Assembly (NCBI GenBank): GCA_943354385.1
Contig: CALRBR010000005.1
Location: 1 to 61,352, forward strand
Direction: 5' to 3'
Length of the DNA stretch: 61,352 bases
Source of the DNA: Candidatus Tayloriibacteriota bacterium
GTDB lineage: Bacteria; Patescibacteriota; Minisyncoccia; Phycocordibacterales; PALSA-1337
Shown here: positions 671 to 60,976 of the stretch, in pieces
Layout of the letters: the number at the start of each line of letters is the position of its first letter
Numbering within the stretch: the stretch's first letter is position 1
Program-made: the position numbers and the translations under genes
Notes under the pieces: model-generated
What the model saw: the letters and a program-made list of their open reading frames with translations, nothing else
The model's database searches: none
What the model was told of the DNA's origin: nothing

Positions 671-1942
671 CTACACCGATGCGTCATCCTGGCCTCGAAT
701 AGCTGTTGAAGCAAACTTGAAGAATAGAATAAGTGCCGTAAGCCAAAAAGCTCCTAGGGCAAAGCCGGCTATCACATCAGAAACCCAGTGCACATTGAGA
801 TATACTCGACTAAACCCAACAAGGATAAAAAGTAATAGGCTAAGTGTGCCAAAAATCTCTCTACCTATCTTGTTTTTAATCACACCACCAAACACATAAA
901 TCAGTGCGCAGAAAAATATCGCCGCCATAGTCGCATGGCCACTCGGAAAGCTAAACCCTGTCTCAAGTATCACCGCATTCTCTGGTCTTACCCGCTCAAC
1001 CAGCTCTTTTAACACGCCTTGAAAGAGCGCCCCGCCAAGTAATGCAAAAGAAATGACAAGTGCCTGATGGATTCTCTTTTTCCACATCAAATAACAGGCA
1101 ATCGCGAGACCTGCGAGTACCAAGTGGACTGGTCCAAAAAAATTAGTAATTCCCGTAAAAATATCTGCTCCCATCACATTCTGTATACTCATCATCTTTA
1201 GATTGACCCACACATCGAGCTCAGCTAGGGACGACTCAACACTAAATACGTCTTGAATTGTCTTGAAAAAAATATAGAGAGAAGTGATGTTTACGAGTAA
1301 TGTATAAAAATGGTACTTCGCAAAAATATGTTGCTGTCGGTTTATAAAACGATATGCCCATACAATAAGAATACTCAAAATAATGGCGATACCGACAAAC
1401 TTTCCTATGTACTGCGAAGCGATTTCGTAACTTGCCCCAAAAACATACCCGACTAGTACCGAGGAGACTGACCATAGAATCCCCCCTGAAATATTATAGA
1501 GCCAAAATTTATTCACATGCACATCTCCCGCTCCTGCCAAAAAAGGTGTAAACGCTCGTGTCACCGGACTAAATCTTCCTATTACAAGTGCCTTTCCTGT
1601 ATGTCTATTCATGGCGTCTTTGGCTTTCTGTAGATGGGCTTCTGTGATAAAAAAGTATTTACCAAATTTACGAATCAAATCGTAGCCATATTTCTTACCA
1701 ACCCTATAGCCGATCACATCTCCAACTATTGCTCCAAGGGAAACAATAAACAAAACTGGCCACAAATCTAGTGTGCCGAGCCGTACCAGAAACCCACTTA
1801 AAATCACCAGTGAGTGTCCGGGAATAAATGTCCCAACGAGTGGCAGGGCCTCTATCACTGCAATCAAAAATAGCACTGTATACGCCCCATACCCCAAAGT
1901 GTCGAGTGGAATGCTATTTATAAGTGATTCAAAATCGAACAT
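671..1942 (-). CDS. Bifunctional DedA family / PAP2 phosphatase membrane protein
   Basis: N-terminal DedA motifs (GAIVGDVIGY, GRF.P..R) and C-terminal PAP2 motifs (K...RVRP, SFPSGH, SRVYLNVHW.SDV). Confidence 0.9.
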   Translation of the reverse strand: MFDFESLINSIPLDTLGYGAYTVLFLIAVIEALPLVGTFIPGHSLVILSGFLVRLGTLDLWPVLFIVSLGAIVGDVIGYRVGKKYGYDLIRKFGKYFFITEAHLQKAKDAMNRHTGKALVIGRFSPVTRAFTPFLAGAGDVHVNKFWLYNISGGILWSVSSVLVGYVFGASYEIASQYIGKFVGIAIILSILIVWAYRFINRQQHIFAKYHFYTLLVNITSLYIFFKTIQDVFSVESSLAELDVWVNLKMMSIQNVMGADIFTGITNFFGPVHLVLAGLAIACYLMWKKRIHQALVISFALLGGALFQGVLKELVERVRPENAVILETGFSFPSGHATMAAIFFCALIYVFGGVIKNKIGREIFGTLSLLLFILVGFSRVYLNVHWVSDVIAGFALGAFWLTALILFFKFASTAIRGQDDASV

Positions 1943-13031: not shown

Positions 13032-13217
13032 TTATTTAACATGAAAGGCTTCAGATTTGAAATTCTCATGTAAGCCGTCTACACAATTACATTTCACTAA
13101 TTGGTGATTGTGATTTGCACAATCCGGCGCTTGGCAGGTGCCAGGAGTTTTTGACACTCCCCTACAGCCTCCGACACAGACATAATGAATTTCTTTTTGT
13201 TTTTCTTCTGTACTCAT
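13032..13217 (-). CDS. Small Cys/His-rich putative metal-binding protein
   Basis: CVGGC...C....C..H....CNC...H in 61 aa. Confidence 0.7.
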   Translation of the reverse strand: MSTEEKQKEIHYVCVGGCRGVSKTPGTCQAPDCANHNHQLVKCNCVDGLHENFKSEAFHVK

Positions 13218-13437
13218 ATTTTTATTATAACATATTTATTGGCTGTCCGAGTACTAGCAATAACGGTTCTTGATAGCTACTCATTTATACCAGCGACTAA
13301 ATTTTCGTCACCGCTCAAATTTGTCTGGGCACCACCTCATATTTTTATTTGCTAATAAAAATTGGCTCCAGCGTTCGATTCCAAGCGAAAGTGGTACCCA
13401 CCACTTTCTTCCCTCAATAAAAATATCTTCGATATTT

Positions 13438-13511
13438 TGGCTGCGGGACTTGGACTCGAACCAAGATGAATCGCTTCAGAGGCGACTATCCTACCATTAG
13501 ATGATCCCGCA
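13438..13511 (-). tRNA. tRNA-Gln(CTG)
   Basis: TGCGGGA acceptor, anticodon arm GTCGC-CTCTGAA-GCGAT, GGTTCGAGTCC, encoded CCA. Confidence 0.92.
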
Positions 13512-13609
13512 ATGTATTAAACTGTAAATCTGCTTATCTACTCTATCTATAATATCACGCTCGTAGCGGTACTTGCTGTTTACAAATCAATCGGAGTACC
13601 TCTTGAGTA

Positions 13610-13640
13610 AACAGGTTGCCTACCTTTAGCCGATCCGGCA
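13610..13640 (-). pseudogene. 5' half of a tRNA-Gln-like gene
   Basis: TGCCGGATCGGCTAAAGGTAGGCAACCTG resembles an acceptor 5' strand plus D-arm. No T-arm or 3' acceptor strand follows. Confidence 0.45.
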
Positions 13641-13756
13641 ATATTTATACATTAACTAACCTTACTAAAGTACCAGAAAAAGGGCTTTTAATCAAGAAAA
13701 AATCCTCCACCTTGACTACAAGGCACCTCCTTTTCTAAAGGAGGAATAAGAAGTGA

Positions 13757-15424
13757 CTATTTCTTCTTTGTAACACGTTCTTTCGAAGCCCTCACAAATG
13801 CACTGAAAAGCGGGTGGGGGTTTAGAGGGCGGGCTTGGAGCTCGGGGTGAAATTGTGAACCAACGAAGAACGGGTGTTTGGTAGTCGGTAACTCAGCTAT
13901 TTCACACAGCGCGCCATTTGGAGAAAGGCCAGAAAAAACCAGTCCTGCCTTAGAAAGCACCTCGACATAGACAGGGTTTACTTCATATCTATGTCGATGA
14001 CGCTCTTTGATAAGCTCCTTGCCGTACGCCTCGCGAGCAATACTTCCCTCTTTGAGCAAAGCGAGATATGAGCCGAGACGCATTGAGGCACCGAAATTAC
14101 CCTCTGTGAGCTTCTTTTTCTGATCGGGCATAATGTCAATGATAGGATTCTTTGTCTTTGGGTCTATTTCGGTCGTCGTCGCATCTTTGAGACCGAGCAC
14201 ATTGCGAGCATACTCTACTACCATGAGTTGCATACCGTAACAGAGGCCGAGATATGGAATCTTTTTCTCTCGAGCAAATTTGATCGCCTTGATCACCCCC
14301 TCGATACCCGATGTACCAAAACCACCAGGCACGATAATCCCAGCGTACTCGGCAAGCGACTCTATTTTCAGCTCCCCAGTCTCAAACTTTTTGGAATTGA
14401 TCCAAGTGAGTGACGCCTTTACCTCAGCCTCATAGCAAGAATATTTTGTTGCCTCAATCACAGAAAGATATGCGTCTGAAAGTACAAAATCTCCCGTGTC
14501 AAAATATTTACCGACAACCGCAATCTTGAGCTCGTCTTTTGATGATTTCGTCCGAGATACAAACGCTCGCCATGGAGCCAGGCCGTCGTGCTTGGCTTTG
14601 GTATTTGGCCTGAGTTTCAGTGCTTTCAAAAGTTGCTCGCCGAGCTTATCTCGCTCAAAGTTTATCGGCACATCATACACACTCTCGATGTCTGGAGCTG
14701 AAATGACATGCTCAGGGCGAATGTTACACATAAGGGCAATCTTCTCCTTGCGTTTGTGGTCGAGCGGGAGTGTACTGCGGGCGACAATAAAGTCTGGCTG
14801 AATACCGTAACCGTTGAGCTGATGCACGGCATTTTGGGTCGGACGGGTTTTCATTTCACCGAGAGTTCCTGGCACAGGTAGGTATGAGACCATCACAAAA
14901 AGCACATCGTCTGGATGCTTTATCTTGAGAATTCTCGCGGCTTCCATAAAAAGGACATTTTGGTAGTCGCCGATAGTACCGCCGATTTCCACCACCGTGA
15001 CATTTGAGCCGTGCCGATGGACTGCCTTTTTGATACGATTCAAAATCTCCTCGGTAATATAGTACACTGGCTCTACACATTTACCACCGTAACCGAGAGC
15101 TCGCTCACGGTCGATCACTGCTTTGTAGACCATACCACTCGTCATATAGTCCTCAGGTGAAAGGTCGAGGTCGAGGAAGCGCTCGTAGTTACCCATGTCC
15201 TGATCGGTCTCTAGGCCAGAGTTGAGAACAAAGACTTCCCCATGCTCGGTAGGATTCATCGTGCCTGCATCGACATTCAGATACGGGTCAATTTTGATAG
15301 GATTTACCTTGTAGCCCTTGGCCTGGATGATTTTAGCGATAGAAGCTGTGGCAATACCTTTGCCCACCCCAGACATTACTCCCCCCACCACGAAGATATA
15401 TTTATGATTGTCTTTTTTAGGCAT
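13757..15424 (-). CDS. pyrG: CTP synthase
   Basis: GGVMSGVGKG, KIDPYLNVDAGTMNP, GLCYGMQ, ERHRHRYE and QFHPE motifs. Confidence 0.98.
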   Translation of the reverse strand: MPKKDNHKYIFVVGGVMSGVGKGIATASIAKIIQAKGYKVNPIKIDPYLNVDAGTMNPTEHGEVFVLNSGLETDQDMGNYERFLDLDLSPEDYMTSGMVYKAVIDRERALGYGGKCVEPVYYITEEILNRIKKAVHRHGSNVTVVEIGGTIGDYQNVLFMEAARILKIKHPDDVLFVMVSYLPVPGTLGEMKTRPTQNAVHQLNGYGIQPDFIVARSTLPLDHKRKEKIALMCNIRPEHVISAPDIESVYDVPINFERDKLGEQLLKALKLRPNTKAKHDGLAPWRAFVSRTKSSKDELKIAVVGKYFDTGDFVLSDAYLSVIEATKYSCYEAEVKASLTWINSKKFETGELKIESLAEYAGIIVPGGFGTSGIEGVIKAIKFAREKKIPYLGLCYGMQLMVVEYARNVLGLKDATTTEIDPKTKNPIIDIMPDQKKKLTEGNFGASMRLGSYLALLKEGSIAREAYGKELIKERHRHRYEVNPVYVEVLSKAGLVFSGLSPNGALCEIAELPTTKHPFFVGSQFHPELQARPLNPHPLFSAFVRASKERVTKKK

Positions 15425-15821
15425 GGATAAGTAAATTTGATTAGTTTATTGTAATTGCGGATAAATCCCCGACGACTTGTCGCGGGGATGAATCCGCAAG
15501 AATGAAGATGAGGTCGGCGGAGACGGCACCTATACAACAAGGTTTACCCTGGTGTCTCGCCTAATACCTAGCCGAGGTATTCCGAGGAAATAGTAGGCTC
15601 ACGGGGATAGGAAGAGACTAAACCTTATAGGACGTGCGTATTTGCGATACATTTCATGGCACAAGCAAGCAACAAGCCTACCACATGTTAAATATGATAA
15701 ACAAAATACCGAGCTTACTACAAAGAAGTGCGTCAAACGCGTATGTCCTATCTATTGTATCAGGAAAAAGGGAGCAGTCTAGTTGCTCAAAACGAGAAGA
15801 GGTGTCGTAGAAAAAAACAAA

Positions 15822-16748
15822 CTAAACCTTCAAATACCGTCGCACAGCCAAATAGCTAGAAACTGCTCCTAGAATAATTCCTGACCCAGCAATAATAAGA
15901 AAAATTTGGCCAAAATTATTGCCGTAGTAGCTCACCAAATCCAAACCTGGAGAAAAGCTTGCAAGCAACTTGTTTACATAATATACAATTGGATAAAAGA
16001 CGATGAGTGTAACCAGAGCCGAAATAATACCGTACATCAATCCACTCACTACAAATGGCCATCGGATATAGCGGTTGCTCGCGCCGACAAGCCTCATCAC
16101 AGAAATCTCATCGCGAGAAGTAAAAATGACAATACGGATAGTATTAAATGTAATGATAATAGAAATAAGTACAAAGAAAATAATTAGCCCTAGACCGAGA
16201 CGATTTGCTGAATCGACTATTTTACTAAGTCGGTCAATAATCTGCTTATTTTTATGGAAATTAATACTTTCAACGATAGTAGAGCCGTCTTTTGAAAGTG
16301 CGTTTTTACTCTCGAGAAACTTGGCGATGCTATCGTACTGGGATGGCTCCTTGGCCTTGATATTGAGAACGGCACCTAGCGGATTTTCACTGAGCTCTTC
16401 GAGGCCCTGGAGAGTCGGCTCGTCATCCTGATGTTTGAGCTTGAAATTTTTCAAAGCCTCATCTCGAGAGACGTACTCTGTGCGAGCGACTTGCTCGAGA
16501 CTCTCGATAGTTTTTTTCAAAGCAAGAATATCTTTCTCTAATGAATTGGTCGTAAAGTACACATTAATGTCTACTTTATCTTTTACCTGACCTAGGTATG
16601 AATTACTGAGCAAACTAAGGAAGATAAGAGAAGTGAATACAAAAAGTGTCATCGTCACAACCAGAATCGACGAGAAAGACACGAAGCCATTACGCCAAAA
16701 GTTAATGAAACCTGCCTTGATTACTCTTTTTATGCTTAACCAAATCAT
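15822..16748 (-). CDS. ftsX: Cell division permease FtsX
   Basis: NTIRI.I..R..EI.VMRLVGA motif. Lies downstream of ftsE. Confidence 0.93.
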   Translation of the reverse strand: MIWLSIKRVIKAGFINFWRNGFVSFSSILVVTMTLFVFTSLIFLSLLSNSYLGQVKDKVDINVYFTTNSLEKDILALKKTIESLEQVARTEYVSRDEALKNFKLKHQDDEPTLQGLEELSENPLGAVLNIKAKEPSQYDSIAKFLESKNALSKDGSTIVESINFHKNKQIIDRLSKIVDSANRLGLGLIIFFVLISIIITFNTIRIVIFTSRDEISVMRLVGASNRYIRWPFVVSGLMYGIISALVTLIVFYPIVYYVNKLLASFSPGLDLVSYYGNNFGQIFLIIAGSGIILGAVSSYLAVRRYLKV

Positions 16749-16865
16749 ATTTTTTTTAGAATTTTGAAAATCTGTTAGAAACTTTTATACTCGATACTTA
16801 AGACTTTTGACTAGTATAGTATACTACCTTTCTCTGTTTTTGTAATAAGTACTTTCGATTTTTGA

Positions 16866-17546
16866 CTACAGCACATACTTGCCATTTTTGTCGTCTCGGG
16901 TAATCTTGCCGTTTTCCATCGTAATCACTCGCCCACCGAGGGCATCGATCACTCCTTTATTGTGTGTGGTGATGATAACTGTCGTGCCAAGGTCATTTAT
17001 TTTCTTTAGGATACGAATGATTTCGTGGGTGTTGGTCGGGTCTAGATTACCAGTCGGCTCGTCGGCGATAATGAGATCTGGCTGGTTTACAATCGCTCTT
17101 GCAATGGCGACACGCTGTTTTTCACCACCAGAAAGCTCATGTGGGAAACTCCAAATCTTTTTACCGAGATCTACGAGCTCGAGCACATGAGGTACATCGG
17201 CCTGGATCTCTTCGTCTGTTCGTCCCGCCGCCTCCATAGCAAAAGCTATATTTTCATAGGCGGTCTTGTTGGGCAATAATCTATAGTCCTGAAAAACTGT
17301 ACCGATACGGCGACGGAGGGTGTTTATTTTACTTTTTTTGAGCTTGTGGATGTTAGTAGACTCAAAGAAAACCGAACCTTTGGTGGGTTTCTCTTCTGCA
17401 AGAAGCATTTTTAGCAAAGTTGTCTTGCCTGCACCAGAATGGCCGACAATTGAGACGAATTCCTTTGCTTCTATGGTAAAAGAGATGTCGATTAGTGCCT
17501 TTGAATTATCTGCATACGTCTTCGATACTTTATCGTAGTAAATCAT
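16866..17546 (-). CDS. ftsE: Cell division ATP-binding protein FtsE
   Basis: GHSGAGKT, VFQDYRLL, LSGGEKQR and ADEPTGNLD motifs. Confidence 0.95.
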   Translation of the reverse strand: MIYYDKVSKTYADNSKALIDISFTIEAKEFVSIVGHSGAGKTTLLKMLLAEEKPTKGSVFFESTNIHKLKKSKINTLRRRIGTVFQDYRLLPNKTAYENIAFAMEAAGRTDEEIQADVPHVLELVDLGKKIWSFPHELSGGEKQRVAIARAIVNQPDLIIADEPTGNLDPTNTHEIIRILKKINDLGTTVIITTHNKGVIDALGGRVITMENGKITRDDKNGKYVL

Positions 17547-17850
17547 TATCTTTTATTATACTCCGTATCAAGGAAAAATTCTATAGGCGTCGATTTATAT
17601 CCCGTTTTACAAAGAGCGAAGCGACTATATAAAACGAGGACACCGAAGTATTCTCTTCGGTGAAGGCCAATTAGACGCCAAAGGCGACAAAACGATACAT
17701 GTCCCCCGGAATTTTCAGTAGAAAATTCCGGGGGACGAGCTTCCTCTTCCCCAAAATATACTTTTTGGCTGTTTTTATAAAACGTCTCTGTAAAGCCCTA
17801 CTAAACGGCTCATTAGCTTAATGAGCCGTTTAAATCTTCGTCTTTTTGAC

Positions 17851-18723
17851 CTAATTCAAACTCTTCTCCGCTTCAATAAAAAGATCCAAATCCCCCCCAA
17901 ACACATCGTCTATTTTGCTAGTCTCAGCATCTGTCCGATGGTCTTTGACCATCTTGTAAGGATGTGTCACGTAGGAACGGATCTGATTGCCCCACTCCAC
18001 TGATGTGGTCTTGCTGATATACATACCTTTTTCTTTGGCAATCCTTTCATCATCTCTCATACGGTATATTTTAGCCGATAGGATGGCGAGGGCTTTCTCT
18101 TTGTTTTGCCCCTGACTACGTTCCGAGGTCACGTGTACTGAAAGCTTAGTCGGTAGATGCACTATACGCACAGCAGTCTCCCGCTTGTTTACATTTTGCC
18201 CCCCTGGACCGCCAGATTTTGCTGTCGTCACTTCGAGCTCATCTGGTGGAATGTCTACCTCTGTCACTTTTTCAAATTTAGGGATCACCTCCACCATCGA
18301 GAAAGACGTATGGCGAAGCTTCTTGGCATTAAATGGCGAGATGCGTACAAGGCGGTGTACACCTGACTCATTTTTGAGTGTACCGTACACATTTTTCCCC
18401 GCTATCTCAAAAGTGATGTTTCGGAAACCACCATGGTCATTTTCGTTGCTATGAATGACCGACATACCCCACCCCATACGATCAATATACTTTTGATACA
18501 TTTTAAAAAGAATAGCAGAAAAATCTTCGGCGTCGTCTCCGCCGGCGCCAGAAAAAATAGTGATAATCGCGTCACCCTTGTCGTATTTTCCTCCCCCTTC
18601 TATCTCGGCCTTGAGGTCGGCAATATCCTTTAGGATCGACTGCGCCCGATTTTTGTCGGCCCAAAAATCGGGCTCCTGGAGGCTGGCTTCGAGCTCCGCA
18701 AGTTTTTGTTTCTTATCTTCCAT
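17851..18723 (-). CDS. prfB: Peptide chain release factor 2, N-terminally shortened, no frameshift
   Basis: SPF anticodon-mimic (RISPF), GGQ motif and WGNQIRSY. Start MEDKK lies 6 nt after a TGCTATAGT -10. Confidence 0.93.
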   Translation of the reverse strand: MEDKKQKLAELEASLQEPDFWADKNRAQSILKDIADLKAEIEGGGKYDKGDAIITIFSGAGGDDAEDFSAILFKMYQKYIDRMGWGMSVIHSNENDHGGFRNITFEIAGKNVYGTLKNESGVHRLVRISPFNAKKLRHTSFSMVEVIPKFEKVTEVDIPPDELEVTTAKSGGPGGQNVNKRETAVRIVHLPTKLSVHVTSERSQGQNKEKALAILSAKIYRMRDDERIAKEKGMYISKTTSVEWGNQIRSYVTHPYKMVKDHRTDAETSKIDDVFGGDLDLFIEAEKSLN

Positions 18724-18779
18724 AAAGCTACTATAGCATGCAGAATGATGGAGAAAAAGTGTCAGGAAATTACATAGAA

Positions 18780-18910
18780 AAATTCGCCCTGAATCCATTT
18801 GGTCAGGGCGATAAGAACGATTGCCACGGATGTGCTGAGAGGTGCGCCATGCCGATTTCTCGACAAGCTGGCTGCTGTTAGCCAGTCTCCCTACCCACAC
18901 CCGTGACCCC
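18780..18910 (-). ncRNA. Unassigned structured small RNA with own promoter and terminator
   Basis: 12-bp closing stem with G-U pairs on the minus strand, two internal hairpins (one GAAA tetraloop), TATACT at 18914-18919 and a terminator hairpin at 18785-18810. Confidence 0.6.
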
Positions 18911-18951
18911 TTAAGTATAGAAAAATAGATCTGCGAAAGCAACCTCGAAAA

Positions 18952-19509
18952 CTAAACCTTCTGACTTAAAAATTTCTCGACTTGATGAGCTAAATCCGCC
19001 AAATTGCCATCGTTTCTAATAACCACATCCGCTCGACGCATGCACTCTGAGATATTTTGCTTAGTCGGATCAGACGATGTCATTTCACGTTGCTCATCAG
19101 ATACAAATTTATCAAAAGAAACTTTATCCAAATCACTTTTACGTCCCACAATTCTTTCATAACGTACCTTCTGATCAGAATCAACGGCCAGCAGATAAAA
19201 TACCTTTTGAGCCTGAGCTTTCAGAAAATCAATCTCTCCTGGTGTGCGCACTGATTCAATCACCGCATTCCCCTCTTTTAATGTAGCCTGGTTATAGAGC
19301 TGTTCAATAATATATCTTGGAGAATATGTCTTTCTCAGTTCGTTTGCTAACAGAGTCATCATGTCTCTATTTACCTCTGTATTGCGCTTTTTCAATTCTT
19401 GCGTCAAAAAATCTCGAACAGAATAATGTGTAAAGTTTTTTGTCTTTAGTATAGAAACTATTTCTCCCTTTCCAGCACCAAGGGTTCCAGTAATGCCGAT
19501 AATAATCAT
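18952..19509 (-). CDS. P-loop nucleotide kinase (archaeal dephospho-CoA kinase-like)
   Basis: IIGITGTLGAGK, VIESVR..GE and ADVVIRNDG motifs. Confidence 0.8.
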   Translation of the reverse strand: MIIIGITGTLGAGKGEIVSILKTKNFTHYSVRDFLTQELKKRNTEVNRDMMTLLANELRKTYSPRYIIEQLYNQATLKEGNAVIESVRTPGEIDFLKAQAQKVFYLLAVDSDQKVRYERIVGRKSDLDKVSFDKFVSDEQREMTSSDPTKQNISECMRRADVVIRNDGNLADLAHQVEKFLSQKV

Positions 19510-19581
19510 GTAGATTAGTATAATGCTAGACAAGATTAAAACAAAATATAAACTGGAGCCAATTCTTATTTCTTATTACGG

Positions 19582-19652
19582 AGCCAAATGTGAGAATCGG
19601 ACTCACGTTCCTGCTTTACGAAAGCAGTGTTCTACCACTGAACTAATTTGGC
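19582..19652 (-). tRNA. tRNA-Thr(CGT), atypical T-loop
   Basis: GCCAAAT/ATTTGGC acceptor, CTGCT-TTCGTAA-AGCAG anticodon arm, T-loop TCCGATT. Confidence 0.85.
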
Positions 19653-20098
19653 CTAGTAGCAATCAACAAACGTGCTTCTTGTGCCCTCTTACTTCGAAAC
19701 CGATTCCCTCGGCCCTTAACTCTATTAAGCCCAGAATAAGTAGAGGTCAACGAATCGCAATTTGGACAAATCAAACGAAGATTATCTTCAAGATTATTCC
19801 TCCAGTTACCGTCAATATGGTCAGCGACCAACGGAACCTGTCCGGTCTTTACACTAATCTCAGCCCAGTGACACAAACAACATTTATCACCAAACTTCTT
19901 TCTAAGATATCTTTTAATATGGTTAGAAACAATACCTAATCCTTGCAAACCTTGAATCTTGCCGGATTGCCACTCAAATATATAGGTCAGGTACTGATAT
20001 TCAAGCTGACAAAGATTACTACAGTATTTGTAAGTAGGGCGTGTAGTTTCTTTTTGGCAATTATGACACTTTTTTCTCGGTTTTCTGATATTTGGCAC
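19643..20098 (-). CDS. HNH endonuclease with N-terminal Zn-finger
   Basis: C..C...YCSNLC, CCLC and DHIDGNWRNN..NLRLICPNC motifs. Confidence 0.9.
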   Translation of the reverse strand: MPNIRKPRKKCHNCQKETTRPTYKYCSNLCQLEYQYLTYIFEWQSGKIQGLQGLGIVSNHIKRYLRKKFGDKCCLCHWAEISVKTGQVPLVADHIDGNWRNNLEDNLRLICPNCDSLTSTYSGLNRVKGRGNRFRSKRAQEARLLIATRPN

Positions 20099-20297
20099 AA
20101 GTTAAGTATAACAGACCCACAGACCACTTGCAAAAATAAAAGCGGTTGCTTTTATTTAAAAAAACTGGGTTCGTGTCTACCCGAACCGACCTCCTCCCAC
20201 GGTTCAACCCCGACACCGGTTCCTTCACTTCGTTCGGAGTCCCTCTTATTAGATTTAATGACAAATTTTTGCTAAAGTAAGTTCTCTTTGATTGCGG

Positions 20298-20370
20298 AGC
20301 CGTCGATCGGGATCGAACCGATGACCTCGTCATTACCAATGACGTGCTCTACCAACTGAGCTACAACGGC
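20298..20370 (-). tRNA. tRNA-Thr(GGT)
   Basis: GCCGTTG acceptor, CGTCA-TTGGTAA-TGACG anticodon arm, GGTTCGATCCC. Confidence 0.95.
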
Positions 20371-20399
20371 TTACTTTAAAACAGAACCATGTAACAATA

Positions 20400-20965
20400 C
20401 TACAACTGAGTAATATTTTCAATCGATTCAACAAATCTTGATAGATGTGTACCCACCAAAATCGCATCCGCAGTGACCTCCATATCACCCAAGGTCTCTA
20501 TATTACTCGCCTGACAGAGCCAGCCAGGAAAAATCGCTCGAGCTTCTTTAAATGTTTCTTTCTTCAAACCACCAGTTTTAAGGTCACGACTGTTCCAAAC
20601 CACTTTGAGATTTTTCGGAAGGGCCCGTAACTCTTCCAATGTATTTGGCTCAATCAAACACTTGTCGAGATGTACTTTCGGAATCCGCCCACCACCAATA
20701 CAAAATCTGCACCGCTTGCAACCGCCTTTACCACTGACTCATCGGTCTCATGAATCCCTTTTGCGAGTATAGGTTTCTTTGTCAATGATTTTGTTTTTTT
20801 AATTAACTCAAAAGACCCGTCACAACTCGCATCTGTGTGTATCGAGATTATATCCCCCACTTTTTCGGCAATAACAAACATCTCATCCCAGCTTTTGGTC
20901 GAGATATAGCCCAAGGGAGAACAAGTCTTTACTTCAGCGAGTATGGTAATATTTTTATCCTGGGA
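20400..20965 (-). pseudogene. Frameshifted indole-3-glycerol-phosphate synthase-like (TrpC-fold) gene
   Basis: ILAEVK..SP, ISIHTD, KPILAK and GADFVLVV motifs. A 1-nt frameshift near 20686 continues as RIPKVHLDKCLIEP...NSRDL...DAILVGT. No clear start codon. Confidence 0.7.
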
Positions 20966-21305
20966 GGTAAACGCTGTATATAGTATAAAAAACAAAAAAT
21001 CTATTTGGATGGCTCGACGGGAACCTCTTTCCTTACAGGAACGGTACAGGCTTCGTATCTCATTTTTGCAACACAAAAATGATGTCTGCGAAAATATCTC
21101 AGCTTAAGCTAAGATATTTTCGCAGATTTACCGCTTCGCTCCGACCTATATACTTAGCCTTTTCGAGTCCCTTTCGGAGCTAACGCTCCTCACGAGCGCG
21201 CAAATATAAAACGGCACTGAAAGTCGTTTTATATTTGCGCGACATGGTGGACTGTGTTAGAACTGCGTTTGATGCAATAAATTATACACAGATATACATT
21301 CCTAA

Positions 21306-21728
21306 TTAATTTATTACTACAACGATGCCTTTCATCATTGGGTGAATAGCGCAGTGATAACTGAAAGAACCAGTTTTGGTGAAAGTAAAGCTAAAAAATT
21401 GTCCTGTGGAAAGAGTAGCTGAGCTAAGAATACCTCCCGAATTAGAAGTGATGTTATGGGGAGCCGAACCGTTGTTTGTCCATACAACTTTCGTACCAAC
21501 CTTAATATTTAAGATAGGGGGATTAAATGCGAAATTTTTTATATCAACTGTAACATTTGCAGGAGTAGGTGTTGTGGTGGGCGTAGGATTTGTTGAAATA
21601 GGAGAATTGTTTATATCCGAAGAATTCGTCGGAACTATTGTAAAGTTATTGTTCGAAATCATGTAATATCCCCCGAAACCTAAAATCAACACTATAACTA
21701 TACCTATACCTATTATTGTATTTTTCAT
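21306..21728 (-). CDS. Membrane-anchored cupredoxin (plastocyanin-like)
   Basis: FAFNPP, WTN....H and YHCAIHPMMKG type-1 copper ligands, with a Pro/Thr linker. Confidence 0.9.
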   Translation of the reverse strand: MKNTIIGIGIVIVLILGFGGYYMISNNNFTIVPTNSSDINNSPISTNPTPTTTPTPANVTVDIKNFAFNPPILNIKVGTKVVWTNNGSAPHNITSNSGGILSSATLSTGQFFSFTFTKTGSFSYHCAIHPMMKGIVVVIN

Positions 21729-21766
21729 ATTTTTATTATTAATTTGTAATATTTAATTCTATTAAA

Positions 21767-22255
21767 TTATTTTCCTACTGTACTATTTTTAAATTCATTA
21801 AGCCCTTTTATTTGTAATTCATGCAAGTGAATTGAAGACCTTTTTGATTTAATTAATTGAATTGAATCTTCAACGCTCATTCCCTTACTGATTAAATATG
21901 CTGAAAACAAAGTCGGTGCTCGACCATGACCATTTTTACAATGAATAAAAGTTTTTATCTTATTACTAATTAAAAAATCTAAAAATTTAACCCCTATTTC
22001 AAAATCTTTAGGACTTGGAGAGGTTTTATCTTCAATTGGTAACCACAAAAAATAATCTACCCCGCTTGGAGCATCCGTGCGGTCTTTTTCTAGACTAATG
22101 TCGGCACGTACACCTTTCGATAAAAGTTCTTTAGAAAAACCAACCTGACAACACATATTTGTACCAATAAAAACTTCATTAGTAATTTGATTATAATCAA
22201 AACCAACTTGCCCAGTTAAATGATTAAAAATATCTCTTGGCCCATGTGCAATCAT
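21767..22255 (-). CDS. Dual-specificity protein phosphatase
   Basis: HCKNGHGRA (CX5R) active-site motif. Confidence 0.9.
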   Translation of the reverse strand: MIAHGPRDIFNHLTGQVGFDYNQITNEVFIGTNMCCQVGFSKELLSKGVRADISLEKDRTDAPSGVDYFLWLPIEDKTSPSPKDFEIGVKFLDFLISNKIKTFIHCKNGHGRAPTLFSAYLISKGMSVEDSIQLIKSKRSSIHLHELQIKGLNEFKNSTVGK

Positions 22256-22537
22256 AGTTTCTATTATAACATTTCCAACGTCCAATAGACAATTAACAAA
22301 GGTGCTTCAGGTCAGAACCTAAAAGTCCTTACCATTAAACGGTAAGATATAGAAATTCTCCTTTGCGCGCTCGATGGGACATTCGAAACCTACAGTTTCA
22401 GTACCCCGATTGGATATTTTGTTTCGCTTTGCTCACAAAATATCTCGATCAGGCTTCGAGTCCCACCGAAAGTGAAGACTTTCACTTTCTTCTAGCGCGC
22501 AAATTAAAAACCGCCCCGAAAGGCGGTTTTTTATTTG

Positions 22538-22611
22538 CGCGCTCGATGGGACTCGAACCCACGACCTCTCCCGTGACAGGGGAGCGTTCTAGCCAGCTGA
22601 ACTACGAGCGC
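22538..22611 (-). tRNA. tRNA-Asp(GTC)
   Basis: GCGCTCG acceptor, CTCCC-CTGTCAC-GGGAG anticodon arm, GGTTCGAGTCC. Confidence 0.95.
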
Positions 22612-22893
22612 AATGGATATGAATATAACAGGAAAATGAGCGGAAAGCAATAAATACGGGCCGCGGGTATCTTCCTCTACGAGGACAGTATCCTGTTTGG
22701 ATTTTTTGTTCATGATTACACTTCAAAAAATGCTCAAACAGGCTTCGACCCATACAGGGTCTGTACACCTTTCACTTTTCTCAGACGAAATGTTCAAGGT
22801 CCTGCAGAAGCTCCAGGTTTTCGCTTCTTCAACCTCCACGCAGGCAAAACCCTTTGCCTGCTCCACCGACAAAACTTCACTTCGTTCAATTTG

Positions 22894-22966
22894 TGTCGGC
22901 GGGAGGGATCGAACCTCCGACCCCAGGCTTATGAGTCCTGTGCTCTACCGACTGAGCTACGCCGAC
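22894..22966 (-). tRNA. tRNA with CAT anticodon (probably elongator Met; Ile2 not excluded)
   Basis: GTCGGCG acceptor, CAGGA-CTCATAA-GCCTG anticodon arm, GGTTCGATCCC. Confidence 0.9.
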
Positions 22967-23058
22967 AGTGATTAGTACGATAACACATTTAAAGCAATCT
23001 CTCAACAACCCTAAAACTAAATCCGTCCACCAGAGGTAGACGGATTTAGTTTTACTTG

Positions 23059-23129
23059 TTGCGGGGCCCGGAATCGCACCGGGGACTCAAGGTTATGAGC
23101 CTTGCGAGATACTGCTCCTCCACCCCGCG
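23059..23129 (-). tRNA. Initiator tRNA-fMet(CAT)
   Basis: CGCGGGG acceptor with C1:A72 mismatch and CAT anticodon. A terminator hairpin follows at 23012-23054. Confidence 0.85.
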
Positions 23130-32467: not shown

Positions 32468-33148
32468 CTACAAAACTATAAAATAATCTTCGACAAAGTT
32501 TTTAAACTCCTTTGAATCTTTAAAATAGTCTGGGAAACTTTCGGTAGTGAGTATATTTTTCTCTACCCGATCAACACCTATATAATCCTGATAGCTGGAA
32601 TATCGATACTCTTCTAGAAACTTTTTCATGCCATTTGTCTCATCTGAAGATTGTTTGATTTTATTTTTCCACCCTGAAAATTTTATATCGAGTGGGTTTA
32701 AATGAAGATATCCAAACAAATGTCGCAAATACACATCATCCACCCCAATTAATTTTGACTTAAATAATCCACCAAATAACGCACCCTTTCGCTGATATTT
32801 GATATTGAAAAACATCGAATAACCCGTACCAAGTTTTTTCATAAACTTTGTAATACCGCCGTCTACGTCCTGACGAATCAGTAGGTGAAAATGATTGGAC
32901 ATCAGAGACCACGCGCCAATAGAGACCAGTGGTTCACTTCTATCAAGTAAAAGAACCTCCTCAAATGTGTTATGTTGTCTGGTCACAAGATCGTCAAGCC
33001 GGAAAGAATCTTTTGAATTTGCAACATAGAGAAGCATCATGAACCGTTCATAATCTCTTACTAACTTAAAAATAACTCTTTTGTCTATACCTCGGTTGTA
33101 CAAATGATAATACTCACCGGTGACAAAAGGATCTTTACGTAACATCAA
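32468..33148 (-). mobile_element. REP-associated tyrosine (HUH/Y1, IS200-like) transposase
   Basis: YHLYNRG, LMSNHFHLL (HUH), YLHLNP (catalytic Tyr) and YRYSSY motifs. Flanked on both sides by the same palindrome. Confidence 0.9.
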
Positions 33149-33157
33149 TACAGTATA

Positions 33158-33706
33158 TCAATAGATGCTTTCTGCGCAAGGACGGTCCTTGCATAACACA
33201 TATTTATCTGGCAAAGATACTGGCAATCCTGAGAGTAGCTTTTTTTGTTTCTGGCTACCAAAAACCCTCGCCCACACACTGCCCCATTGCCATAGCTCAG
33301 CCCGATCCACTAGCTTTGCCCTCAATTGATTTCGTTCAACATATTTAATCAGTGTTAAAAGGTATGCATCATTATCCACAAGAAATGATTTGTAGCGTCC
33401 TTGATAAAGGTGCCCACTTCCATTTGTACCTGTCTCTGCATGCACTTTCCTAGTATGCGAATTTGTAAGACGATGCATGAAAATTCCAAGATCCCCATCC
33501 AACACTGGCTGAAGTATTAAGTGCCAATGATTTGGCATCAATGTATATGCAAGTATTCGCATCCCTGTCAGCTCTTGCGCTTCAACAAGCAACTCTAGAA
33601 AAAACTAATAGTCTTTTGGTTCGGTAAAAATCTGTAGTCTGCCGTTGGCACGATTGAGTACGTGATATATTTCTCCCGCAATATCGATACGAGCGTTTCT
33701 TGGCAT
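33158..33706 (-). pseudogene. Second REP-associated tyrosine transposase with internal TAG and truncated 3' end
   Basis: MPRNARIDIAGEIYHVLNRAN..., TAG at 33605-33607, then LMPNHWHL, GHLYQGRYKSF and YVERN motifs. Confidence 0.85.
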
Positions 33707-45455: not shown

Positions 45456-45529
45456 GCGCCCTTAGCTCAGTTGGTTAGAGCACAGAGCTTATACCTCTGG
45501 GGTCCTTGGTTCGAATCCAAGAGGGCGCA
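45456..45529 (+). tRNA. tRNA-Ile(TAT)
   Basis: GCGCCCT/AGGGCGC acceptor with A73, CAGAG-CTTATAC-CTCTG anticodon arm, GGTTCGAATCC. Confidence 0.9.
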
Positions 45530-45749
45530 CAGATCATCGAATAATCTCGAATTACTCGGTTTATTAAACGGCTCCACAGACTTGTTGAGCCGTTTAATGT
45601 GCCTTAGAATGTAGGTTTTTGTAAAATAGGCCTGTGAGACTAACTAGAACCGCTCTTGCTAGGTTTCTATTAAATGGAGAAATAAAAAAATGGCACACAC
45701 AGGGCGGCCATTGGGGCTGGGTTGAGCGACTGAGCTGTTTTTTGATCTG

Positions 45750-49376: not shown

Positions 49377-49778
49377 GGGGATGATCGGCCTAGACAGGAG
49401 ATTTCCGTATTTGTGTGCAATGCGGAGCACCGTTAACTCCTAAATCTGACGGAAATCGTAACTGCAAAAACAGTTGCTAAAGCAAAGGCTGTTGTGTCTC
49501 CATTCTATGGAGCCAACAACTTCGCTTTCGCTTACGCAAACGCCTAAGCGACATTGATCGAGCCTTCTCCACGGGGTTTGAATCGGTGTTATATTGTGGA
49601 TTAGAATATATCCCCTTCCCGAGATATGTTCGAAACTAAGGGAATCGGCATTCGTGAGTTTTGCTCATTCTATATCACGAGTTCCTAAATCTGCTCACGC
49701 AGGAAAAATAAGCTACGCATTGTAGACTCACTGATACTCATTTCTTGCACCCGAGTTCGATTCTCGGCATCTCCACCA
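49377..49778 (+). ncRNA. ssrA: tmRNA
   Basis: GGGGATG...CATCTCCACCA alanyl acceptor with G3-U, T-arm CCGAGTTCGATTCTCGG, and tag ORF at 49464-49547 after TAACT. Confidence 0.95.
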
Positions 49779-59701: not shown

Positions 59702-60976
59702 CTAAAAAGTGGCGTACGTCGAAGAAGCTGTGATTGTGAAGTAGTTATCACTATAGTCACTAGCGATTGATTTTCCCGTACCATCAGCAATAAAAACTTT
59801 ATACTGCCCAGCAGGCAAACTAGAAGGTAGTAAATAGGAAACCCTTCCCAAACTTGCAGTTACAGGATCAAGTGTACCGTAACCAATATCGCCTTTTGAT
59901 AAGTTTATTATTACCTTTTCGAGCCCCAGAGAATTCCACTTAAACTCATACATTTTCCCCATCTGCCAAACCTCCCCTCCGTTTGGATAAACCACCGTGA
60001 CAGAAGGATTTGCATTGGTGCTGCCCACATTTACACTCAAACTTGTTACCTGACTTGCATTTGCATTTCTCACATAAAATCGTGGGCTGAAAATAGCAGC
60101 ACGTCCATAAGTATGAGTGAAAGTCGAAGTTTGTACCCATGGAGCCTCTGTGGCATTCGATAATAAAGATGTCTCATCCCCCCAGACAACAGAGTATGAG
60201 AGACTTCCTCCGGTTGGATCATAAGCATTTACCGTCCAAGCTCCTTGCTGATTAATGTTTAATGATTGTGGGCCGCTTACCCCATTAATAACTGCGTTCA
60301 TCATTGCGATAGGGGGTTCATGAGGGTGTTCATGCCTGAACGTAGTACTTGATGGACACGACCTAAACTGACATGATGGTGCTACACGAGAAACATAGGA
60401 TCCGTCTGGACAATGCATTTCATCAGCAGTACAAATCACTCCATCAGCATGCGGATTTGGTGCCTGATTCCCACACCCATACAGACTATTCAATTTGGCT
60501 CGAGTGATCGGACCAACAAAACCGGTTTGAGATATGCCGTATTTTTTTTGGAAAGAGACTACAGCCTCAGCAGTAGATTCTCCAAATAAAGCATGTAGTG
60601 TGTTACGACTTTCTGAAAGATCTTGGGTAAAACCCTCCATACGCAAAACTTGTTTTAAGTATTTCATGTCTCCATTACCATTTTCATCTAAATCGTCTCC
60701 GAACTTCAAATTCTGATTAAAGTTATGACAAAAAACCACTGGAGCAGGAGTGCTCGGATCGGTCGATCTCGTCACTGCCCCATTCGCTCCCACACTAAAC
60801 CCCCGAGCCTTGAGCTGATCGATGAGTTGCATAATAATCGCCTCGAGTTGTGCGATGAGAGTGGCTTCGTCAGCGGAAGAAGCTACTGTAGTCTGAGCAG
60901 AGACTGGGTACACAGCGACAACTGTAGTGAAGGAAAGAATGAGGGCGATGACACCGAAACCAATGGCTTTTTTCAT
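59702..60976 (-). CDS. Secreted peptidoglycan-binding protein with PKD/Ig-like domains
   Basis: Signal peptide, FGEST..AV..FQ.KYGI..TG.VGP.TRAKLN, CT.D...CPDGSYVSR..P.C.F..CP, WGD...HTY and PNGGE.W motifs. Confidence 0.85.
   Translation of the reverse strand: MKKAIGFGVIALILSFTTVVAVYPVSAQTTVASSADEATLIAQLEAIIMQLIDQLKARGFSVGANGAVTRSTDPSTPAPVVFCHNFNQNLKFGDDLDENGNGDMKYLKQVLRMEGFTQDLSESRNTLHALFGESTAEAVVSFQKKYGISQTGFVGPITRAKLNSLYGCGNQAPNPHADGVICTADEMHCPDGSYVSRVAPSCQFRSCPSSTTFRHEHPHEPPIAMMNAVINGVSGPQSLNINQQGAWTVNAYDPTGGSLSYSVVWGDETSLLSNATEAPWVQTSTFTHTYGRAAIFSPRFYVRNANASQVTSLSVNVGSTNANPSVTVVYPNGGEVWQMGKMYEFKWNSLGLEKVIINLSKGDIGYGTLDPVTASLGRVSYLLPSSLPAGQYKVFIADGTGKSIASDYSDNYFTITASSTYATF

Follow-up and report, generated by a model that had tools for sequence, protein, structure and literature searches.

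Short non-coding cassettes with gene-matched arms behind tRNA and protein genes of a Tayloriibacteriota bacterium and other Patescibacteria

What kind of sequence trails the tRNA-Gln(CTG) gene of this Candidatus Tayloriibacteriota bacterium, and why does it carry the end of the gene a second time in inverted orientation? The gene lies on the minus strand at 13438-13511 (ARAGORN; Rfam tRNA model, 56.6 bits) of the window, i.e. the whole stretch of 61,352 nt analysed here, which is contig C5 of a host genome (G000) of 661,967 bases in 24 contigs that is 97% complete. A preliminary description, made from the letters of the window, had proposed that several tRNA genes are followed by a self-matched antisense copy of their 3' end. 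The overall observation proved to be real and wider than first seen, although some of the instances listed at that time fail.

All features of the tRNA-Gln trailer are read on the minus strand. The final ~23 nt of the gene, from the T-loop to CCA, constitute the first sense copy (S1). Immediately 3' of the gene, sequence and folding reveal a spacer at 13421-13437, an AT-only hairpin that the sister genome G001 has kept at its orthologous locus; it is the short hairpin (13437-13421) which had been noticed before. It is followed by an antisense copy (A) of the gene end in two parts. The first, A(acc), is a degenerate antisense copy of the 3' strand of the acceptor at 13409-13420 with 1 mismatch in 7, less well preserved than in a paralogous unit on contig C3. 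The second, A(T), covers the T-loop and the 3' strand of the T-stem at 13373-13386 and comprises 13 nt which are 92% complementary to 13449-13461 (1 mismatch in 12 in the census described below). Inverted-repeat analysis, from which A(T) was derived, also yielded the hairpin of 9 bp (13387-13408, 100% paired) that separates the acceptor part from the T-arm part. Such a splitting hairpin is a trait of the type B units and is found at the equivalent position behind the tRNA genes for Asp, Leu(TAA), Pro, Asn and Val(TAC). The degenerate, hairpin-split inverted copy of T-arm and acceptor (13420-13409, 13408-13387 and 13386-13373) and the insert hairpin at the matching position of the tRNA-Asp trailer had therefore been described correctly. 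The supposed direct remnant of the 3' end at 13363-13372, in contrast, is not Gln-specific: the motif recurs behind Gly(GCC), Thr(TGT) and the Lys(TTT) gene of G001 and is part of a conserved core, termed type B2. This core (13281-13372) consists of two hairpin modules according to folding and alignment with the C3 paralogue, and it is common to the units behind Gly(GCC), Pro (second unit) and Thr(TGT) and to the C3 paralogue. Beyond the core, the same alignment places the second sense copy (S2), a decayed repeat of the 3' end of tRNA-Gln, at ~13265-13280; it is intact in the C3 paralogue. The two trailers can be aligned to ~13283 and the boundary of S2 rests on this one paralogue alignment. 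Read from the sequence in this way, the tRNA-Gln unit is a decayed B2 copy with a predicted far end at ~13265, and the span of 13361-13511 assigned to it at first, right in what it described, stopped halfway.

Folding the 3' half of the tRNA-Gln gene together with spacer and antisense copy as a single strand results in one branched hairpin of -36.2 kcal/mol. The S1-spacer-A fold has a z value of -5.8, and none of 200 shuffled sequences (0/200) was as good. A(T) differs from its own S1 in the T-loop and agrees with the Gln(CTG) allele of G001.

Complete units are arranged in the order gene end (S1), hairpin spacer, inverted copy (A), folded core and forward copy (S2), and the old flank follows S2. 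They are about 100-300 nt long and non-coding; the spacing between S1, core and S2 is too short for any ORF, and an element-encoded protein is absent. At least three core types (A, B1 and B2) can be distinguished. In an alignment of 68 type A cores, the segments GGGTCGGG and CCCG.GGAGGAA are invariant and flank a hairpin with a co-varying stem: among 63 distinct first hairpins, positions 3-7 alternate between GC, AT and CG pairs, and G:T and A:C pairs occur 4 and 2 times, respectively, which gives no indication of the strand of a possible RNA. B1 and B2 are composed of other hairpin modules, and their A is split between acceptor and T-arm by the hairpin that had previously been called the insert scaffold of Gln and Asp. 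The cores form hairpins with GNRA-like loops and exhibit compensatory changes. The spacers are either hairpins with a GC stem and a T-run or mini-hairpins of the GCGAAGC type, and S1-spacer-A is often an uninterrupted palindrome centred on the spacer loop, as observed for Thr(TGT), Gly(GCC) and Asp. At tRNA genes, A has its inner edge and S2 its start at the T-loop, some 22-25 nt ahead of the spacer. Judged by eye, many spacers resemble terminators; a simple terminator scan left the Gln and Asp spacers unmarked and marked a site 18 nt behind the Asp S2, and the conserved cores extend well past a terminator.

The same layout had been claimed for tRNA-Asp, tRNA-Thr(GGT), tRNA-Met and the tmRNA of the window, and these claims fared differently. 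Behind tRNA-Asp (22537-22611, minus strand), alignment, census and folding identify a complete B1 unit at 22365-22536 on the same strand, with a terminator-like hairpin, a split antisense copy, a core and a perfect S2 (12/12). Its S1-spacer-A fold reaches a z of -11.2 and its A-core-S2 fold a z of -7.7, and the unit is better preserved than that of Gln. The tRNA-Thr(GGT) gene (20296-20370, minus strand) is followed by a truncated type A unit at 20161-20213 that retains an antisense T-arm and the 5' part of the core. For tRNA-Met (22893-22966, minus strand), one or more degenerate chained units at 22658-22892 can be made out by eye, but the gene has a cognate score of 13 and rank 25 in the test described below, while the tmRNA (score 14, rank 18) is without any cognate match. 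Chains of units were found at Ile(GAT), Pro and Trp and, without a tRNA, on contig C3, where the second unit is the one that aligns with the Gln trailer; within the chains each S copy precedes the next unit.

To quantify the fit between each unit and its own gene, the terminal 32 nt of each of 41 tRNA and tmRNA genes were reverse-complemented and aligned with the 300 nt 3' of every gene. In 17 of the 41 cases the own tail ranked first against its own trailer, where about one is expected by chance. This comparison of cognate and non-cognate tails, which had been named beforehand as a possible refutation, clearly favours the observation. Taken alone, Gln(CTG) is weak (score 21, rank 5 of 41), because the T-loop in its antisense T-arm is spelt as in tRNA-Gln(TTG) and in the G001 Gln(CTG) gene. 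No cognate excess was seen for the tmRNA or for both tRNA-Met genes (ranks 25 and 23). A strict census returned 30 units at the 73 tRNA genes of G000 and G001; to be counted, a unit could have no more than 2 mismatches in 12 in its antisense T part and no more than 4 in 12 in its second sense copy. In these 30 units, A and S2 have diverged from S1 to practically the same extent, with 16/150 versus 14/150 differences in the T-stem and 31/210 versus 30/210 in the acceptor. Both therefore carry mismatches at 10-15% of the sites, and the pairing between A and S2 is not kept, e.g. at Gly(TCC). In other assemblies, 39 loci with enough sequence among the matches listed were treated accordingly, each local tail being ranked among the 39 with the T-loop excluded; the cognate tail was best at 26 loci for the antisense copy and at 35 for the sense copy.

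Within the genus, filled and empty alleles of the same locus can be compared. The tRNA-Gly(CCC) locus of G001 is empty and consists of tRNA, terminator and flank, whereas that of G000 is filled and carries the same flank behind S2, together with a degraded terminator. Phe, Trp, Cys and Leu(TAA) are filled in G000 only, Arg(GCG) and Glu(TTC) in G001 only, and at Gln(CTG) a B2 unit in G000 stands against a type A unit in G001 with the spacer shared. At Arg(GCG), Ser(ACT) and Gln(CTG) of G001, S2 equals or nearly equals the tRNA allele of G000, whereas S1 and A have the other allele, with compensating changes in both strands of the stem. Arg(TCT) is filled in both genomes with different core variants. 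The terminator behind its S2 in G000 shares 90.6% identity with that immediately following the tRNA in G001, and although S1 and S2 of the G000 unit are identical, the stems of the S1 spacer and the S2 terminator are quite different. The cores, on the other hand, do not track loci: the same locus bears different variants in the two genomes, while the core of G000 Cys is 98% identical to that of G001 Gln(CTG) and the core of G000 Lys(TTT) 99% identical to that of G001 Arg(GCG). Contigs from four DNA runs over 13101-23100 were short and cross-mapped on tRNAs, yielding neither a usable empty-site joint nor an excised form.

The cassette family is not confined to tRNA genes. Among the matches listed, five copies follow rpsI. 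In four of the five, S2 reads in frame as ...P(Q/H/E)WSKR-stop, the fifth being masked by N, and its codons differ synonymously from those of the live gene end (Ser AGT versus TCG/TCC, Arg CGA versus AGA). An in-frame S2 with synonymous differences is not a fresh duplicate and indicates a displaced old end that was functional for a long time in another allele. In two of these copies (L068 and L114), A corresponds to the live rpsI end (19/19 and 15/15) rather than to the displaced one, and S2 of the rpsI copies extends further left than A. Some copies are without the hairpin or without A (L118 and L064). By eye, L064 lies after lepA and lacks a terminator. Another copy, L085, was seen by eye at the start of a GTPase gene, whose first codons it duplicates.

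The distribution of type A cores was surveyed by an exact-pattern search; B1 and B2 are known from two genomes. G000 contains 9 pattern copies and its two congeners G001 and G002 contain 7 and 9. The pattern was detected in 6 of 41 relatives, with a reversed control giving 0. In its exact form it was absent from 22 genomes of the other genera of the family, and it was present in 3 of 16 genomes from other families of the order, one of which (G025) holds a single copy. In these families, too, the arms correspond to the tRNA of the locus (Glu, Asp, Leu or Arg). Of 401 genomes sampled across the phylum 5 were positive, all of them in the same class, and here as well the reversed control gave 0. 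A public scan with one genome per species returned at least 119 stretches, chiefly in Saccharibacteria and Parcubacteria/Paceibacteria MAGs; about 10 GC-rich non-CPR matches among those listed have the appearance of chance hits within coding DNA. In 80 loci analysed among the matches listed, 41 of 82 motif matches have a tRNA on the same strand within 260 nt upstream. The type A core is present in many Patescibacteria assemblies, in every case with arms that match the local gene.

These data bear on the two explanations offered in the preliminary description. That of miniature elements fitted to each tRNA 3' end is supported, and now extends to protein genes, since arms specific to the locus flank a conserved core at about 15-25 of 40 tRNA genes here, presence and absence vary among congeners, and the same core occurs in many Patescibacteria assemblies. 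The other, a cis-antisense trailer that controls tRNA maturation or masks att sites, is unsupported: units are gained, lost and swapped within the genus, decay is as fast in the antisense as in the second sense copy, and at many loci a terminator-like hairpin precedes the antisense copy.

Which enzyme, if any, moves the cassettes was addressed by protein family searches. G000 encodes one tyrosine recombinase, which is Xer-like and located ~5 kb from the nearest tRNA, and yielded 0 matches to reverse transcriptase (PF00078) and 0 to TnpB (PF07282) in its 97% complete genome. An integron integrase was rejected, with TIGR02249 at 131.7 bits against a cut-off of 265. The window itself contains two adjacent Y1 transposase-like ORFs (32468-33148 and 33158-33592, the latter with an in-frame TAG upstream) that weakly resemble REP-associated transposases, with scores of 49.5 and 20.9 where the NCBIfam cut-off is 80; their flanks contain no cassette motifs. 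PF01797 (Y1) is present in 19 of 41 relatives, many of them without cores, and was not found in the core-bearing genomes G001, G002 and G025 with their 7, 9 and 1 type A cores. A Y1 or RAYT enzyme was thus ruled out as the mobilising enzyme of type A, given that genes and cores do not co-occur. At the RNA level, Rfam at the gathering threshold recovered 8 tRNAs and the tmRNA in the whole window and nothing else, and a relaxed search (E<=1) of 44.6 kb with ~20 units and the C3 chain returned tRNAs and microRNA or plastid look-alikes far below the cut-off. Readings of the type A core as akin to RNase P or SRP RNA, and of the units as permuted or split tRNAs, were dropped on inspection of the sequence; a hammerhead-like three-way junction was dropped on account of junction bases that are not conserved, and a retroviral-type primer-binding site on account of copies that take in flank and are without CCA. 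In the openly accessible full-text articles searched on Patescibacteria/CPR, such elements were not found described.

Comparison with known mobile systems results in partial likeness in each case. REP/REPIN sequences and the PATEs of IS200/IS605 elements are short palindromic non-coding repeats behind genes, and in IS200/IS605 the flank beside the element end serves as a guide matching the empty site. The cassettes are likewise short, palindromic and positioned behind genes, with single-strand hairpins as a likely substrate. Unlike these repeats, their arms are locus-specific and 15-25 nt long. REP/REPIN-RAYT membership fails for want of RAYT co-occurrence, and membership with IS200/IS605 PATEs or TnpB guide RNAs fails as well, with no TnpB and, where a fixed short target motif at the left end would be expected, with junctions that differ between tRNA and protein-gene copies. 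Retroelements (retron, group II intron or non-LTR-like) were dismissed, G000 being without a reverse transcriptase, and a classical MITE, a DDE transposon derivative with fixed terminal inverted repeats and a target-site duplication of 2-10 bp, does not match inverted arms that are locus-specific target copies and a direct repeat that consists of 12-36 nt of gene end. In integron attC and CTX-phage attP(+) sites, an imperfect palindrome folds in single-stranded form into the recombination substrate, and integration at such folded-strand sites leaves an inverted site pair around a 'loop' at one end. The A-core-S2 topology equals this inverted pair plus loop, and the heptamers at the core edges of tRNA units (..ATCGAAC / GTTCGAT..) resemble attC R boxes. 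They are, however, simply the T-loop of the tRNA target; R''/R'-like heptamers are missing at the rpsI copies, the arms are target copies and not fixed, and the host lacks an integron integrase, so that the cassettes are not integron cassettes. In Neisseria, minimal mobile elements spread without an enzyme of their own between conserved genes via transformation and homologous recombination, and DNA-uptake sequences often form inverted repeats behind genes in terminators. The enzyme-less spread proposed below would be similar. The cassettes differ in being present at ~10-25 per genome and not in thousands, and in having arms that are duplicated gene ends and not whole genes. Integration of islands and prophages at tRNAs brings a replacement 3' end with the insert and leaves the old end downstream as a direct repeat; direct 3'-end repeats from the T-loop onward are the classic signature. 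The S1/S2 repeat, the displaced old end and the cut from the T-loop onward are shared with these islands, and a direct repeat of the gene end was found at 30 of 73 tRNAs in G000 and G001. In contrast to islands, the cassettes measure 100-300 nt, have an extra inverted copy, use one core for many targets and leave no ORF room between S1 and S2 for an integrase or cargo, and their host has just the Xer-like recombinase. Finally, in fungal mitochondria, partial C-terminal copies of cob and atp6 occur in intergenic spacers holding LAGLIDADG or GIY-YIG homing-endonuclease ORFs (PMC6279837). The likeness consists in mobile DNA that separates the live gene from a partial copy of its 3' end further downstream; the fungal inserts encode the driving endonuclease, whereas the cassettes encode nothing and no matching nuclease was found.

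We consider it somewhat more probable than not, at roughly 55%, that the units are mobile, enzyme-less cassettes which recombine into their cognate gene, supply it with a new end and displace the old one. A cassette would enter the cognate gene by recombination, after which the gene would end in the incoming copy S1, travelling together with spacer and A, while the resident gene end would be pushed behind the core to survive as S2 and decay. After DNA uptake, the conserved arms (tRNAs, rpsI) would permit entry into the same gene of other lineages; recombination across lineages is possible since the arms are pieces of highly conserved genes. Repeated entries would produce chains. The recombination route, the origin of the arms at new genes and the functions of core and inverted copy are what we infer: the route could be RecA-type recombination on both arms or the action of a structure-specific enzyme on a folded single strand, and the inverted copy would allow two alternative long hairpins (S1-spacer-A and A-core-S2) of a single-stranded intermediate, which by analogy might behave in the manner of integron attC or CTX-phage attP(+).

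The cassette model is favoured by the cognate arms, by a conserved core with variable arms, by gain and loss among congeners, displaced old ends, chains and patchy spread, and by the lack of an own protein. It is weakened by the fact that no partner enzyme or drive was found; since plain homologous recombination is not biased towards the filled allele, persistence of that allele needs a drive or a benefit. Furthermore, cores that do not track loci call for gene conversion among cores or for frequent jumps accompanied by the making of new arms, and the latter is left unexplained by the model. The equal divergence of A and S2 would also be expected if the target had been copied in both orientations in a single event, and the Gln A, whose T-loop is that of the G001 allele and not that of S1, also counts against it.

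The main alternative is a different insertion process, which we regard as doubtful, in which the core alone moves and ~15-25 nt beside a hairpin, usually a terminator, are copied once inverted and once direct. This would be a new way of transposing, with target-matched arms. One possible route is that two staggered nicks free a single-stranded flap of gene end plus hairpin, which folds back and is extended to the duplex edge to give A, while its other end primes on the core to give core-S2. Near-identical cores with wholly different arms within and between genomes would follow naturally, as would the equal decay of A and S2, as of twins made together, the continuous S1-spacer-A palindromes (e.g. 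Thr(TGT), Gly(GCC), Asp) and the coincidence of the inner edge of A with the start of S2 at the T-loop, 22-25 nt before the spacer. The rpsI copies do not agree with such copying, as their S2 is a synonymously different, once-functional allele that reaches further left than A. The same holds for the three G001 tRNA loci at which the alleles of S2 and A differ, and for G000 Arg(TCT), where the stems of spacer and post-S2 terminator are unlike though S1 equals S2. Neither copies without hairpin or A (L118, L064) nor L085 at the 5' end of a gene are accommodated, and the cores are not associated with any reverse transcriptase or transposase.

An RNA device that is useful to the host appears improbable. 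Antisense RNA made by read-through would pair with the 3' end of the tRNA or mRNA or with S2 as a decoy and so regulate termination, decay or the processing of 3' ends; the A-core-S2 fold of type B would imitate the acceptor/T-arm half of a tRNA. The strong alternative folds (z = -5.8 to -11.2), the GNRA-like loops with compensatory core changes and the position directly behind highly expressed genes are consistent with this idea. A function for the host is difficult to reconcile with units whose presence, type and number vary within the genus at the same tRNA, with about half of the tRNAs being without a unit, and with a very patchy distribution. Moreover, A and S2 are mismatched at 10-15% per site without conservation of their pairing, the same cores stand behind protein genes and at a gene start, and no Rfam family corresponds to them.

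Scars of integrase islands or prophages, with S1/S2 as attL/attR, the cargo deleted and the core as a leftover attP arm, would account for the direct T-loop-onward repeats with a displaced old end, and a serine-recombinase-like ORF was seen by eye behind tRNA-Gln(TTG) on contig C6, but this origin is very improbable for ~20 loci in a 0.66-Mb genome that share three core types at tRNA and protein targets, with no integrase beside any unit and one Xer-like tyrosine recombinase in the genome, an inverted copy of the att region that is foreign to the classic signature, and no cargo-bearing version among 82 motif matches, in which core and tRNA are at most 260 nt apart or a tRNA is missing.

Beyond the cassette model as such, a bolder and tentative proposal is that the units represent enzyme-less selfish DNA distributed across the superphylum, in which a folded core gains forward and inverted copies of host gene ends and homes between lineages. 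The arms may arise by target-templated fold-back at hairpins or by recombination of an imported folded single strand. Gene ends, and perhaps whole tRNA alleles, may be replaced thereby, and the core may act as a signal for uptake, priming or recombination.

CPR/Patescibacteria have tiny genomes and are thought to be poor in selfish DNA. Despite its tiny genome, roughly half of the tRNA genes of this bacterium carry a cassette of 100-300 nt. Such cassettes explain spurious 'pseudo-tRNA' fragments, palindromes and assembly breaks beside tRNAs in CPR MAGs, and the displaced gene ends are molecular fossils by which gene flow can be dated and traced in organisms not cultivable by themselves. Should the cassettes spread in the proposed way, lineages would exchange gene ends and tRNA alleles without an enzyme encoded by the element, through natural DNA that brings its homology arms along; should the arms instead be written during insertion, the chemistry of transposition would be one that was previously undescribed.

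Besides tRNA genes, protein genes were also found to carry copies of the type A core, one of at least three core types of the cassette. In a Patescibacteria MAG (L085, ~6408) a translational GTPase gene, encoded on the strand opposite to such a core, has the core at its 5′ end. The live start codons of this gene are located on one flank of the core and a second copy of its first ~10 codons, differing synonymously from the live codons, on the other. Because the core is flanked by two copies of the GTPase start, gene starts are also open to duplication. In two further loci from public assemblies, L068 and L114, the displaced rpsI end downstream of the type A core, when traced to the left, continues into the last core hairpin, within its 3′ arm (GGTTTCCAAAG.. 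in the arm vs. GGTCTCAAAAAG.. in the rpsI gene). This continuity is a hint that an rpsI end may have given rise to part of the type A core itself.

A non-coding stretch of 840 nt, holding a chain of cassette units without a tRNA gene, was identified on contig C3 of the genome under study (~60,080–60,920, minus strand; L190 1583–2421). Its arms correspond to tRNA-Gln, yet an intact tRNA-Gln is absent, and a search of this stretch against Rfam returned no match. The module ..AAAAGTTCGGATTTTGTTCAGGAGACACAGC.. upstream of this stretch is found again in a Parcubacteria MAG (L092), where it adjoins a type A core. GCGAAGC-, GCGTAGC- or ACGAAGT-type mini-hairpins are repeated in the spacers and core ends of many units, immediately 3′ of the tRNAs and at the junction between the core and the second forward copy (e.g. 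at Arg(TCT) on C15, Lys(TTT) on C21 and Trp on C1). Motifs of the GCGAAGC kind form DNA hairpins of unusual stability.

In the window, the cassette is absent at both tRNA-Ile(TAT) (45456–45530) and the 402 nt tmRNA (49377–49778, tag AKAKAVVSPFYGANNFAFAYANA). Two neighbouring Y1 transposase-like ORFs of 226 aa and 144 aa, the latter with an in-frame TAG farther upstream, are located on the minus strand (32468–33670) with type IV pilin-like genes on either side. At 49.5 and 20.9 bits vs. a cut-off of 80, both show a weak likeness to REP-associated tyrosine transposases, and the occurrence of Y1-like genes across relatives does not match that of the cassette cores. On contig C6 an ORF starts ~240 nt downstream of tRNA-Gln(TTG) (880–953, minus strand). 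Judged by eye from its first residues (MNKFFLYARKSTDEPDRQ...) it looks like a putative serine recombinase, which would imply an ordinary integrated element adjoining this tRNA.

Comparison of the tRNAs with those of the congener G001 revealed highly divergent alleles, such as Thr(CGT) (52/75 identical), Ile(TAT) (51/76) and Leu(GAG) (62/87), beside others that are 100% identical. Arg(GCG) is changed only in the acceptor and T stems. Replacement of tRNA alleles, in whole or in part, seems to be common.
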